Shown here piece by piece: positions 1 through 1,880 of a stretch of DNA of 64,000 nt. Source of the stretch: Candidatus Hydrogenedentota bacterium (lineage in GTDB: Bacteria; Hydrogenedentota; Hydrogenedentia; Hydrogenedentales; SLHB01); the NCBI GenBank assembly GCA_045863335.1, contig BTVY01000014.1, forward strand, positions 1-64,000, given 5' to 3'. The notes below the pieces were generated by a model that saw only the letters and a program-made list of their open reading frames with translations, did not search any database and was not told the origin of the DNA. Position numbers and translations under genes: made by a program. Position 1 is the first letter of the stretch. Each line of letters starts with the position of its first letter.

Positions 1-127
1 GATGAATACCTTTCAAGAACAATAAGTTGCCTTAATTATGATGCAATGCACTAGAGTCCGATACAACAAGCCCTGCCGCGGACGGTTAGCCGCGCGTGCA
101 GTACCGTGAACCGATGGGAGAGATTAC

Positions 128-262
128 ATGAAACACCTCATTGTCCAATCACGTTCGCGCCAGTTTCCGTTGAAAGCAGACGAAAAGGGGCCGATCATGG
201 TCGATCCCTGCGCCGGGCTTTCGGGAAAGCAACTGAAGGCGTGTGAGAAAAAGCACAACTAA
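128..262 (+). CDS. small peptide 1 (44 aa, MKHLIVQSRSRQFPLKADEKGPIMVDPCAGLSGKQLKACEKKHN)
   Basis: Translated by hand. GGGAG RBS upstream of ATG128, TAA at 260-262. Shares SxxFPxxA and DPC-x10-CE with the next two ORFs. Confidence 0.7.
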   Translation: MKHLIVQSRSRQFPLKADEKGPIMVDPCAGLSGKQLKACEKKHN

Positions 263-311
263 ACCGCAGTCAAGAGCCGCCGCAGGCGAATACGGAGGGC
301 AACACCCCGCC

Positions 312-470
312 ATGAAGAGAAAGCAACGTCTACTTAAGAATCTTTCCAAGAAGCTCCCCCTCAGTGCTGAAGCCAAGGGCGGCGAGATCCAGGATCCCTG
401 CGCGGAACTCACGGGCGTCGAGCGTAAGAAATGCGAGTGCAAGGCCTACAAGGGCGGCGTAGTATATTGA
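312..470 (+). CDS. small peptide 2 (52 aa, MKRKQRLLKNLSKKLPLSAEAKGGEIQDPCAELTGVERKKCECKAYKGGVVY)
   Basis: GGAGGG RBS upstream of ATG312. C-terminal part of track ORF 243..470. Paralogous motifs with its neighbours. Confidence 0.7.
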   Translation: MKRKQRLLKNLSKKLPLSAEAKGGEIQDPCAELTGVERKKCECKAYKGGVVY

Positions 471-492
471 CGCGAACTCGAAGGGGAGCGTC

Positions 493-648
493 ATGAAACA
501 CGTGCATTCGCAAACCAAGAGCCAATTCTTGCCCCGTCCCGCGATTAGCGTGGGCGGATTCGTCGCCATCTTGAATTGCGATTCGGAGGTCAATGACGAC
601 GGCAAAAAGTGTGAACTCGAGATCACGAAGATTGGCGATCCTTCGTAG
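493..648 (+). CDS. small peptide 3 (51 aa, MKHVHSQTKSQFLPRPAISVGGFVAILNCDSEVNDDGKKCELEITKIGDPS)
   Basis: AAGGGGAG RBS upstream of ATG493, TAG at 646-648. SxxLPxxA and C-x10-CE motifs. Confidence 0.65.
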   Translation: MKHVHSQTKSQFLPRPAISVGGFVAILNCDSEVNDDGKKCELEITKIGDPS

Positions 649-657
649 CCTGGTCTG

Positions 658-706
658 ACGGGACGCCGTGCCGCCTAGAGCGTGGGCGGTTCGGCGTCCC
701 GTTTTC
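658..706 (+). terminator. probable intrinsic terminator closing the peptide array
   Basis: ACGGGACGCCG (658-668) pairs with CGGCGTCCCGT (692-702), with an inner CCGCC/GGCGG stem, followed by a short T run. Confidence 0.6.
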
Positions 707-920: not shown

Positions 921-1880
921 TTGAGTTACGTCGTTCTGATCGCCGGATTCGTTTTCCTTATCAAAGGCGCGGACTTGCTTGTCGAAGGGGCGTCATCCCT
1001 AGCGAAGCGTCTAGGCGTGTCGGACCTCGTCATTGGAATGACCATTGTCGCCCTGGGCACCTCGCTTCCGGAACTCATCGTCAGCGTGTTCGCGGCGGCC
1101 AAAGGCGTCACCGGCATCGCCATCGGCAATGTAATCGGCAGCAACATCGCCAACATCCTGCTTGTTTTGGGTGTTGCTGCTGTAATCAGTCCCGTTATCG
1201 TGGCGCGAGGCACGGTTCGCAAAGAGATACCGTTTTGCCTTCTCGCGGCCCTGCAAGTGGCACTACTTCCCAACGATCGCATCATCGAGGGTGAGACCCA
1301 CAACATTCTGAGCCGGATTGATGGTTTTGTCTTGCTCAGCTTTCTTGTGCTCTTTTTGTACTATGTCTTCGAACTGGCCCGTTCCTCGGAAGCCGAAATG
1401 CTGGACGTGCCGGAGTTCACGACGACAGTGCCCCGTTCCCTGGGGCGAATCGCGATCGGCTTGATCGGGCTGACTCTGGGTGGCCAATGGGTCGTCCGTA
1501 GCGCCACCGACATCGCGCGTGCGTTTGATGTAAGTGATGACATCATTGGCCTGACCATCGTGGCAATTGGCACGTCACTTCCCGAGCTGGCAACTTCGGC
1601 CGTGGCCGCCTATCGAAAGAATTCGGATATTGCCGTCGGCAACATCGTCGGCTCCAATATCTTCAACGTGTTTCTCGTGCTCGCCGTGACGGCCATCATC
1701 CATCCCTTGCCCTTCTCGTCCACCAACAATATCGATGTGGGCGTGATGATAGGCACCACAATGCTGTTGCTCCTCTTCATGTTTACGGGGCGAGTGAAAT
1801 ACGAGATTCAGCGCATCGAAGGCGTCATCTTCCTGTTTTCCTACGCCGCATACATTGGATTCCTCATCTACAGGTCGTAA
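921..1880 (+). CDS. calcium/sodium antiporter (CaCA, YrbG-like)
   Basis: Two GTSLPEL alpha-repeats and GNxxGSNI motifs; polytopic membrane protein. Confidence 0.93.
   Translation: MSYVVLIAGFVFLIKGADLLVEGASSLAKRLGVSDLVIGMTIVALGTSLPELIVSVFAAAKGVTGIAIGNVIGSNIANILLVLGVAAVISPVIVARGTVRKEIPFCLLAALQVALLPNDRIIEGETHNILSRIDGFVLLSFLVLFLYYVFELARSSEAEMLDVPEFTTTVPRSLGRIAIGLIGLTLGGQWVVRSATDIARAFDVSDDIIGLTIVAIGTSLPELATSAVAAYRKNSDIAVGNIVGSNIFNVFLVLAVTAIIHPLPFSSTNNIDVGVMIGTTMLLLLFMFTGRVKYEIQRIEGVIFLFSYAAYIGFLIYRS

Follow-up and report, generated by a model that had tools for sequence, protein, structure and literature searches.

Three consecutive small genes near one end of the window, by which we mean the whole 64,000-nucleotide stretch of DNA analyzed here (positions 1-64000 of contig C14 in genome G000), are real genes under purifying selection. 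By the evidence of sequence searches, they represent an undescribed and lineage-restricted family of micro-proteins of the Hydrogenedentota, with at least 19 database clusters and five paralogues in the genome of the window. As their best reading we tentatively propose that the products are stand-alone peptides, each with a disulfide loop and an N-terminal module of a non-classical kind, and that they are probably exported.

The first gene, p1 (type A), lies at positions 128-262 of the plus strand and encodes 44 residues (MKHLIVQSRSRQFPLKADEKGPIMVDPCAGLSGKQLKACEKKHN) with an M-K-H module, a P-x-x-A motif and a D-P-C-x10-C-E loop. It is followed on the same strand by p2 (type B; 312-470, counted from ATG-312), which encodes 52 residues with a third Cys and a strictly C-terminal tail, A-Y-K-G-G-V-V-Y, and by p3 (493-648), a distant paralogue of 51 residues that has the N-terminal module of the family and an acidic C-x10-C loop. 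A longer form of p2 starting at GTG-243 is possible; the alignment of relatives puts the orthologue starts at ATG-312. An earlier, sequence-only reading of this DNA had described three plus-strand frames of 44, 52 and 51 residues, each with its own SD sequence and closed together by a terminator, and the frames were confirmed in the ORF list and in the raw sequence. Purine-rich, SD-like runs are indeed found before each start (GGGAGAG at 116-122 for p1, GGAGGG at 294-299 for p2, GGGGAG at 483-488 for p3), the run of p2 being far from its ATG, at 12 nt. The terminator is likewise there: an intrinsic-terminator-like hairpin with a U-run, at 646-712 of the plus strand, closes the small-gene unit. 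It folds to -49.7 kcal/mol (z = -8.1; 0 of 200 shuffles are as stable), and its arms are also present in the related genomes G105 and G107. A pattern scanner for terminators reported none at the locus because the hairpin loop exceeds the rule of the scanner. The next gene (921-1880, plus strand), included here as context only, encodes a protein of the CaCA (Na+/Ca2+ exchanger) family (Pfam PF01699, E 2e-69). With a strong terminator before that gene, the small-gene unit probably forms a transcription unit of its own.

In sister genomes the orthologues preserve reading frame, start and stop, and their dN/dS is about 0.05-0.32 over the family types at dS 0.3-1.3, which is the codon-level conservation in relatives that the sequence-only reading had asked to be checked. 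By type, the values are 0.13-0.32 for type C, 0.19-0.23 for type A (the range found for the p1 orthologues in G105 and G107), 0.05-0.18 for type B (0.15-0.18 for p2 orthologous pairs) and 0.25 for p3 (the pair of G000 and G107). In the C-terminal 25 residues of p2 at most one position differs among G000, G105 and G107. The reading frames are intact in G105, in G107 (two clusters) and in G106; p3 has two further copies in G107 and one in G106, while the copy in G105 is frameshifted. The frames are very short, as would be expected of chance ORFs in an intergenic or regulatory region holding no genes, but conservation of frames, starts and stops across species, dN/dS well below 1 and dozens of homologues from independent assemblies already contradict that explanation, to which we give almost no credence. 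Two sequencing runs contain contigs that cover parts of the locus. In run X18, labelled metatranscriptomic (that it represents RNA is a guess), two contigs are identical to positions 82-232 and 302-525 of the window; in run X2, an RNA-Seq library, contigs lie over 184-512 and 515-1045 and there is also a 185-kb contig. Both runs provide contigs only, DNA carry-over is possible in both, and the stretches they leave uncovered carry no meaning.

The ancestral unit is a four-gene array in the order C-A-B-p3. The locus in the window is the larger part of this array of ribosomally made paralogues of 44-52 residues, split here by a repeat. Gene C is located on contig C89, and in the genome of the window the repeat sits between gene C and p1. 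Its edge, presumably that of an insertion sequence, occupies positions 1-55 of the window without an assigned strand; the last 55 nt of C89, like these positions, recur at the ends of other contigs. The contig break at position 1 of the window results from insertion of this multi-copy repeat after gene C. In a DNA contig from run X3, the end of gene C is fused directly to base 51 of the window.

We rebuilt the upstream side of the array from C89 and three relatives. It contains genes for two Zn-dehydrogenases (Zn-ADHs), an FAD oxidase, an SDR and a 229-residue protein of no known kind; the radical SAM/SPASM, peptidase or exporter genes that the sequence-only reading had suggested looking for there are absent from it. 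That reading's remark that no maturase is adjacent downstream holds, the other flank consisting of CaCA, SDR, YceI, PBP1A and GFO genes. Both flanks are housekeeping genes, and solitary copies in other genera have unrelated housekeeping neighbors. An Rfam search of positions 1-1100 of the window and 6250-6714 of C89 returned nothing but one sub-threshold snoRNA match (E 0.82), and the conserved leaders that precede the CaCA gene and gene C are no more stable when folded than shuffles (z = -0.03 and -0.19, respectively).

We define the Hydrogenedentota M-K-H / Cys-loop micro-protein family by an N-terminal M-K-H module, P-x-x-A and then D/N-P-C-x-G-L-x-G-x5-C within a protein of 36-58 residues. 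Both p1 and p2 have all of these features and match the family profile at E 1.3e-20 and 7.3e-25, respectively. Among the 124,883 six-frame ORFs of the genome, p1 as a query finds p2 at E 2.1e-5, which makes the two clear paralogues, and two more paralogues on contigs C37 and C89. In the same ORFs p3 matches only itself by phmmer; the comparison of its profile with the family profile gives a probability of 94.8% (E 5.3e-8, over 46 columns). The paralogy proposed in the sequence-only reading is therefore close for p1 and p2 and distant for p3, which has neither D-P nor G-L-x-G and fits the definition by profile-profile comparison only. The regular expression suggested there gave seven six-frame matches, of which three are the ORFs themselves and four are due to chance, and it missed both extra paralogues.

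A search of 5.8 billion sequences gave 26 candidates, 21 of them at E <= 0.01, and 28 matches at E <= 0.001 were obtained among 1.84 billion representatives. Nineteen of these 28 are single-copy proteins of 36-58 residues, and all except P0047 (18 of 19) have a basic start, mostly M-K-H. Matches occur in 18 of the 135 genomes of the phylum, and the solid ones all belong to four genera of one Hydrogenedentota family; distribution varies within genera, two of which have the peptides in 3 of 5 and in 4 of 8 genomes, respectively. A metagenome scan gave two loci, one of which (L047) was rejected as an off-frame match within a high-GC ligase gene. Searches of p1-p3 against Pfam and NCBIfam gave zero matches at E <= 10, and the family had no match in the PDB. 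In the portion of the literature that was accessible, searches turned up only generic RiPP and small-protein papers and not this family, and those by motif gave no papers. The sequence-only reading had named a lack of homologous small ORFs and a match to a known non-peptide family as results that would speak against it; homologues were found, and the databases held no such match.

Members of the family begin with a basic N-terminal module (M-K-H-hydrophobic-K ... [ST]-[KR] ... P-x-x-A), which is followed by a linker that varies in length and by the Cys loop, D-P-C-x-G-L-x-G-x5-C, 12 residues bounded by two Cys, which is the most constrained part across orthologues. An alignment of 36 sequences shows no variation at the P-C, the second Cys or the Ala in P-x-x-A, and conservation of 90% or more at the loop residues D, L and G. 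Apart from M-K-H and P-x-x-A, everything ahead of the loop, N-terminal part as well as linker, differs in sequence and length. The sequence-only reading had recognized a basic, non-hydrophobic N-terminal module that ends in P-x-x-A and is followed by a fixed C-x10-C loop, and this arrangement is real; its residue counts for p1, p2 and p3 (Gly at +4 after the Ala, first Cys at +11, +11 and +12, ten residues between the Cys, then KACE, KKCE and KKCE) all proved correct when repeated. What did not survive is its description of a conserved leader with a variable core: D-P-C, G-L-x-G and the second Cys are invariant or nearly so, and it is the N-terminal part and linker that vary. The tail of type B is also invariant, ending in G-G-V-V-Y in 16 of the 36 aligned members with the stop codon always directly after the Tyr; types A and C and p3 are without it.

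Types A, B and C carry a net charge of +1 to +8, and, averaged over 10 residues, Kyte-Doolittle hydropathy peaks at -0.1 to 1.7 in 20 of the 21 type A/B/C members scanned, with one member at 2.2. In p3, whose net charge is about -1, residues 18-27 form a short hydrophobic run (Kyte-Doolittle 2.4-2.65), and the residue that precedes its Cys is N or H, with no lipobox residue. By hydropathy scan and lipobox check, no Sec, Tat or lipoprotein signal peptide, which would show some 7-15 hydrophobic residues behind a basic N-terminus, was recognized in type A/B/C members or in p3. The residue before the invariant Ala is K, S, R, P or L, which differs from a double-glycine leader with its Gly-Gly, Gly-Ala or Gly-Ser end. 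These results bear out the earlier view that the leader is not of the Sec, Tat or double-Gly kind, and extend it to lipoprotein signals. An AlphaFold2 model of type B has one helix (residues 36-47) at a mean pLDDT of 63.5; because this confidence is low, the model leaves the fold and the proximity of the two Cys unsupported.

The same loop also occurs in proteins of a very different architecture. Nine of the 28 matches contain 2-9 tandem copies of the motif, and four full-length examples (P0028, P0032, P0033 and P0038) have signal-like hydrophobic N-termini, with 10-residue Kyte-Doolittle means of 2.2-3.2. P0028 additionally carries SRCR, kringle, LDLa and trypsin domains, and two clusters include named members from a cuttlefish and a ctenophore. 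The micro-proteins and the repeat proteins (P0027, P0028, P0032, P0033, P0038 and fragments) agree in residue pattern and in having 10 residues between the Cys, and several of the repeat copies equal types A to C in their richness in lysine. The secreted proteins hold their 2-9 copies within 84-1285 residues, behind signal-like N-termini and, in one case, together with animal extracellular domains, whereas the Hydrogenedentota micro-proteins have a single copy after a lineage-specific basic module. At about 17-22 residues per copy, the match of the loop to the secreted repeat proteins could be due to shared descent or to convergence. No Pfam model covers the D-P-C-x-G-L-x-G-x5-C repeat, and the motif, which bacteria, a cephalopod and a ctenophore carry in secreted proteins, may therefore be an unrecognized extracellular mini-module.

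In the exported-peptide reading, the two Cys would be joined by a disulfide, stapling a small loop or helix module that lies outside the cytoplasm; an extracytoplasmic disulfide is suggested because other bacteria and animals have the motif, tandemly repeated, in proteins that start with a classical signal peptide. The N-terminal module would serve as a tag for export or processing of a non-classical kind, possibly cleaved after the invariant Ala, and the peptides, once mature, would have a conserved target in their own cell, in signaling, at the envelope or in a cation-related process, while a role as arms-race bacteriocins or heavily modified RiPPs is disfavored. Export is opposed by the finding that types A, B and C are without a hydrophobic stretch or an export signal of known type. 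No exporter or leader peptidase gene was found to accompany the genes, either on the two flanks or in a C39 domain search of the genome, and small, strongly basic proteins without a signal are commonly cytoplasmic. The peptides may instead stay in the cytoplasm as unprocessed micro-proteins, a possibility that we rate only slightly lower than export. Their basic N-terminus and loop would then bind a macromolecule (ribosome, nucleic acid or enzyme), or the Asp/Glu-flanked Cys pair would bind metal or sense redox, perhaps as an oligomer of paralogues. The absent signal peptide and the positive charge of types A, B and C are consistent with this, as are export or processing genes that are neither nearby nor co-inherited, purifying selection over the whole loop, which fits a fixed intracellular partner, and the location of solitary copies among unrelated housekeeping genes. 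However, the occurrence of the Cys-loop motif elsewhere behind signal peptides points to a disulfide and not to a cytoplasmic thiol pair, a metal site in a monomer would need more than the two invariant Cys, and the Pfam, NCBIfam and PDB searches revealed no similarity to any known cytoplasmic small-protein family. Very unlikely, in our view, is that the peptides are small accessory or regulatory proteins of the neighboring CaCA transporter. Type B is encoded directly or one gene upstream of a CaCA orthologue in six genomes of two genera (G000, G105-G109), and the acidic, Cys-bounded loop of p3 could bind Ca2+. MntS and MgtS of enterobacteria are small proteins that modulate cation transporters, and the peptides resemble them in being small or hydrophilic, in a length of roughly 40-50 residues and in having a gene near a cation transporter, but there is no sequence similarity and the CaCA adjacency is not universal. 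A strong terminator separates the two units, no family ORF lies upstream of the CaCA orthologues (50-52% identity) in G111, G118 and G102, G103 and G104 keep type B where the CaCA orthologue is absent, and copies in other genera are located elsewhere; the adjacency may simply be inherited gene order common to both genera. A complex prediction for CaCA (22-row alignment) and type B (36 rows) scored 0.00, which gives no answer either way on binding.

The sequence-only reading had offered RiPP precursors alongside exported disulfide-looped peptides, and while the latter remain the best, if tentative, fit, the former are weak without a maturase. It is rather unlikely that the genes encode RiPP precursors whose maturase is encoded elsewhere, for instance a radical SAM enzyme that modifies the Cys loop, or an enzyme that, as in mycofactocin, targets the Val-Tyr end of type B. 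A leader-like module followed by a Cys core, tandem paralogous genes each with its own start, and the invariant end of type B argue for it, and a language-model look-alike search placed the TIGR04149 rSAM-RiPP cluster at the top with 0.89, which is below the 0.9 level and only a lead (the other best matches in the language-model atlas, at 0.77-0.86 and all below that level, were lantibiotic). The row of short paralogous ORFs, the non-Sec N-terminal module of about 17-19 residues and the Cys-containing C-terminal part are like those of tandem RiPP/bacteriocin precursor arrays (TIGR04149 GG-motif rSAM targets, class II microcins); microcin V has a C-terminal C-x10-C disulfide. Unlike such arrays, the locus is without a Gly-Gly or Gly-Ala cleavage motif, an adjacent maturase or immunity gene and a C39-ABC exporter, and its core is conserved, not hypervariable, with the N-terminal part the more variable. 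MftA, the mycofactocin precursor, ends in G-V-Y, and MftC, a radical SAM enzyme, modifies this Val-Tyr. Type B is similarly short with an invariant Gly-Val-Val-Tyr end, but no mft-like genes are adjacent and types A and C and p3 do not have the tail. A maturase, RRE protein, peptidase or transporter is absent from both flanks, including the reconstructed upstream side, and precursor HMMs match 0 of 36 members, the one match obtained (E 0.032) being unrelated. Five SPASM-domain ORFs in the genome, four without a confident name, could supply a distant maturase; one is an anaerobic sulfatase maturase and the other four score below all cut-offs. To the MftC model TIGR03962 the five score 28.5-76.6 bits (cut-off 265), and to the SCIFF maturase model TIGR03974 the sulfatase maturase ORF scores highest, at 64.8 bits (cut-off 425), with no NCBIfam match for the family members. 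A 470-residue SPASM ORF on contig C13, whose neighbors are membrane proteins, has orthologues in both genera with the B-CaCA arrangement. It was rejected as a candidate: orthologues are present in 6 of 6, 3 of 3 and 1 of 1 genomes of three genera, one of which has no peptides, and two genera that do bear the peptides have none (0 of 5 genomes in one, 0 of 8 in the other). A B12-binding radical SAM protein, encoded with a DUF1963 gene upstream of the C37 paralogue and still near the C37-type paralogue in G107, scores as BchE (535.8 bits, cut-off 481); its orthologues (at least 79% identity) are confined to the genus of the window (4 of 5 relatives, one broken), with none in the three other peptide-bearing genera. 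The C39 domain (PF03412) was found only in ORFs of 2188, 1618 and 2243 residues on other contigs, none near the peptide genes. Neither an adjacent or co-inherited maturase nor a match to a curated precursor family or leader motif was thus found, and since the loop is conserved and a maturase is neither adjacent nor co-inherited, the RiPP reading is without its defining support. We consider quite unlikely a combined proposal in which M-K-H...P-x-x-A would be a new kind of leader to an unrecognized export or processing route and the G-V-V-Y of type B would be modified by a distal enzyme, jointly making a new ribosomal peptide signal or cofactor class with a loop shared with animal secreted proteins by descent or convergence.

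Small proteins that fall below annotation cut-offs are systematically missed, and this family is a clean example, in a candidate phylum without a cultured model. If the N-terminal module proves to be a leader, the family would point to an unknown route of peptide export or processing; if the peptides remain cytoplasmic, they would constitute a new class of abundant basic micro-proteins.

Three small forward-strand open reading frames lie at the start of the window, at 128-262 (p1, 44 aa), 312-470 (p2, 52 aa counted from the ATG) and 493-648 (p3, 51 aa), and both the ORF list and the raw sequence agree with their description in the sequence-only reading. The window, with a G+C content of 60%, spans the opening 64 kb of contig C14, within an assembly of 6.75 Mb in 105 contigs. 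The residue spacing was also correctly described: Gly at +4 after the Ala of P-x-x-A, the first Cys at +11, +11 and +12, ten residues from Cys to Cys, and K-x-C-E. Each ORF has its own purine-rich, Shine-Dalgarno-like run before its start, which in p2 is far (12 nt) from the ATG. A pattern scanner found no terminator downstream of the ORFs; the closing terminator of the array is supported by folding, where a hairpin and U-run at 646-712 reaches -49.7 kcal/mol (z = -8.1) and none of 200 shuffles is equally stable.

The array consists of tandem paralogues. Searched against 124,883 ORFs of 25-150 aa taken from all six frames of the same genome, p1 retrieves p2 (E = 2.1e-5), a 44-aa ORF on contig C37 (E = 4.5e-9) and a 45-aa ORF at the extreme end of contig C89 (E = 1.1e-4). 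With p3 as the query only p3 itself was matched in this set. A profile of three p3 orthologues nevertheless matches the family profile with 94.8% probability (E = 5.3e-8, 46 columns), therefore the claim of three paralogues is right and p3 is the distant one.

In two related genomes, G105 and G107, the gene order is a 229-aa protein on the opposite strand, C, A (p1), B (p2), p3, the terminator and a CaCA-family Na+/Ca2+ exchanger; a third, G106, has B, p3 and the exchanger, and G107 carries an additional C-B-p3 cluster at another site. In the window's own genome, C89 ends with gene C and C14 begins with p1, therefore C89 is the upstream context of the window. The terminal 55 nt of C89 (6660-6714 of locus L009) and the initial 55 nt of C14 (window 1-55) recur at several other contig ends, and the same edge, inverted, begins C89. 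Sequencing runs were compared with the window as contigs, and in a DNA contig from run X3 the end of gene C is followed immediately by window base 51, the junction reading CTAG. Thus the gene C stop codon is the site of a multi-copy repeat, presumably an insertion sequence, which splits the C-A-B-p3 array in this assembly; a related population lacks it, as the X3 junction shows. The assembly does not contain the element's body.

The reading frames of the small ORFs are maintained in sister genomes. Nei-Gojobori dN/dS is 0.125-0.316 for gene C (six pairs), 0.190-0.233 for gene A (three pairs), 0.148-0.180 for gene B (three orthologous pairs), 0.049 between the two gene B copies of the G107 clusters, and 0.249 for p3 between the window's genome and G107; two further gene B pairs are saturated. 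A 1-nt deletion near the 5' end of the G105 copy of p3 inflates the values of the pairs that include it. The deletion lies just 5' of the P-x-x-A codons (contig C548, locus L012, about 1651-1827) and throws the ATG out of frame with the remainder, so this copy represents a pseudogene or else an error in the MAG. Judged by this codon-level conservation (0.049-0.316 in the uninflated pairs), the small ORFs are protein-coding genes under purifying selection, and it is very improbable that they are not genes.

The family they form is undescribed and restricted to one lineage. Pfam and NCBIfam models match neither p1-p3 (E <= 10) nor the 36 aligned family members, and no PDB chain matches the family profile (E <= 10). 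The motif strings are absent from the searched literature, in which no paper on the family was found. A search of 5.8 billion sequences returned 21 proteins at E <= 0.01 from 26 candidates, some annotated only as "hypothetical protein" from Candidatus Hydrogenedentes MAGs; a search of 1.84 billion gave 28 representatives at E <= 0.001. The p3 subfamily comprises just three clusters. Within the phylum Hydrogenedentota, 18 of 135 genomes were matched, with solid matches confined to a single family, where four genera have them (5/5, 3/5, 3/3 and 4/8 genomes), and two partial matches beyond it (E about 0.008-0.009).

Across the 36 sequences, the N-terminus reads M-K-H-hydrophobic-K, then [ST]-[KR], then P-x-x-A with an invariant Ala, followed by a linker whose length varies, reaching about ten residues. 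Constraint is centred on the Cys-bounded loop, D-P-C-x-G-L-x-G-x5-C, in which the Pro and both Cys are invariant and the Asp, Leu and Gly are conserved in at least 90%. Type B, with 16 of the 36 members, ends exactly in A/S-Y-K-G-G-V-V-Y, and its orthologues show at most one difference in the last 25 residues versus about ten in the first 27. The pattern is thus the opposite of the conserved leader and variable core that had been proposed.

No maturation or export genes are associated with the family. Downstream of p3 are the CaCA exchanger, an SDR, a YceI protein, a class A PBP and a GFO/IDH/MocA oxidoreductase. C89 carries two Zn-dependent dehydrogenases, an FAD oxidase, an SDR and the 229-aa protein, and none of the radical SAM/SPASM, peptidase or exporter genes that were to be sought on the upstream side; neither flank has a maturase, peptidase or exporter. 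The 229-aa protein (L009, 5617-6303, reverse strand) is divergent from gene C, matches nothing in Pfam, is hydrophobic at its N-terminus, and occupies the same position in G105 and G107.

We rejected three candidate partners encoded elsewhere. The B12-binding radical SAM protein near the C37 paralogue is BchE-like (535.8 bits against an equivalog cut-off of 481) and confined to the window's genus; in this region (locus L008, 3173-5792 and 7689-9512) it is followed by a DUF1963 protein, replaced by unrelated DNA in G107, and farther on by an OLD-family AAA/TOPRIM nuclease gene. A SPASM enzyme on contig C13 occurs in two peptide-bearing genera, is absent from the other two and is present in one peptide-less genus. 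Peptidase C39 domains occur only in giant ORFs of 2188, 1618 and 2243 aa (C4:71795-72133, C88:4827-5195 and C61:16712-17050), unlike ordinary 700-aa bacteriocin exporters. RiPP precursors with a distally encoded maturase therefore seem unlikely, and the RiPP emphasis of the sequence-only reading is unsupported by gene context.

The sole neighbour maintained across genera is the CaCA exchanger (921-1880, forward strand): in six genomes from two genera, type B immediately precedes its orthologue. Three further CaCA orthologues (50-52% identity) are not preceded by any family ORF, two congeners have type B without this orthologue, and family copies in the remaining genera have unrelated surroundings; a role as accessory proteins of the exchanger appears quite improbable. 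The roughly 100 nt before its TTG start (820-920) are near-identical in G105 and G107 and contain a TACAAT box. This stretch shares the frame of the exchanger gene and stops at a TGA at 918-920 (TGG in G107, open in G106); it has no Rfam match and folds no better than shuffles (z = -0.03).

Types A, B and C in Hydrogenedentota lack a hydrophobic stretch (maximum Kyte-Doolittle hydropathy mostly 0-1.7) and carry a net charge of +1 to +8; p3 is close to neutral and combines a brief hydrophobic segment (residues 18-27) with an acidic loop. That they are unprocessed basic micro-proteins of the cytoplasm is a possibility to which we give some weight. An AlphaFold2 model had low confidence. Systems with which the peptides can be compared are microcin V, mycofactocin, MntS and MgtS.

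Among the 28 representative matches, nine are larger proteins, or fragments, in which the loop motif occurs 2-9 times in tandem, and four that are full-length begin with a hydrophobic, signal-like segment (10-residue Kyte-Doolittle mean 2.2-3.2). No Pfam model covers the repeat. Tandem copies occur in P0027, P0028, P0032, P0033 and P0038, and the proteins concerned include bacterial ones with signal peptides, a protease-like protein of a cuttlefish and a ctenophore protein. One such protein carries SRCR, kringle, LDLa, C-type lectin and trypsin domains and has cuttlefish proteins in its cluster, another cluster includes a ctenophore protein, and one bacterial protein has an LPETSG-like motif near its end followed by a hydrophobic tail. 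The motif's presence in these signal-bearing proteins suggests that the Cys pair is built for disulfide formation outside the cytoplasm, although each copy is short and the likeness may be convergence. The best remaining fit, which we favour tentatively while leaving some room for something else entirely, is the exported disulfide-looped peptide of the sequence-only reading, with cleavage and disulfide as predictions: the family would comprise stand-alone peptides whose N-terminal module may serve as a non-classical export or processing tag and whose loop would be stapled by a disulfide outside the cytoplasm.
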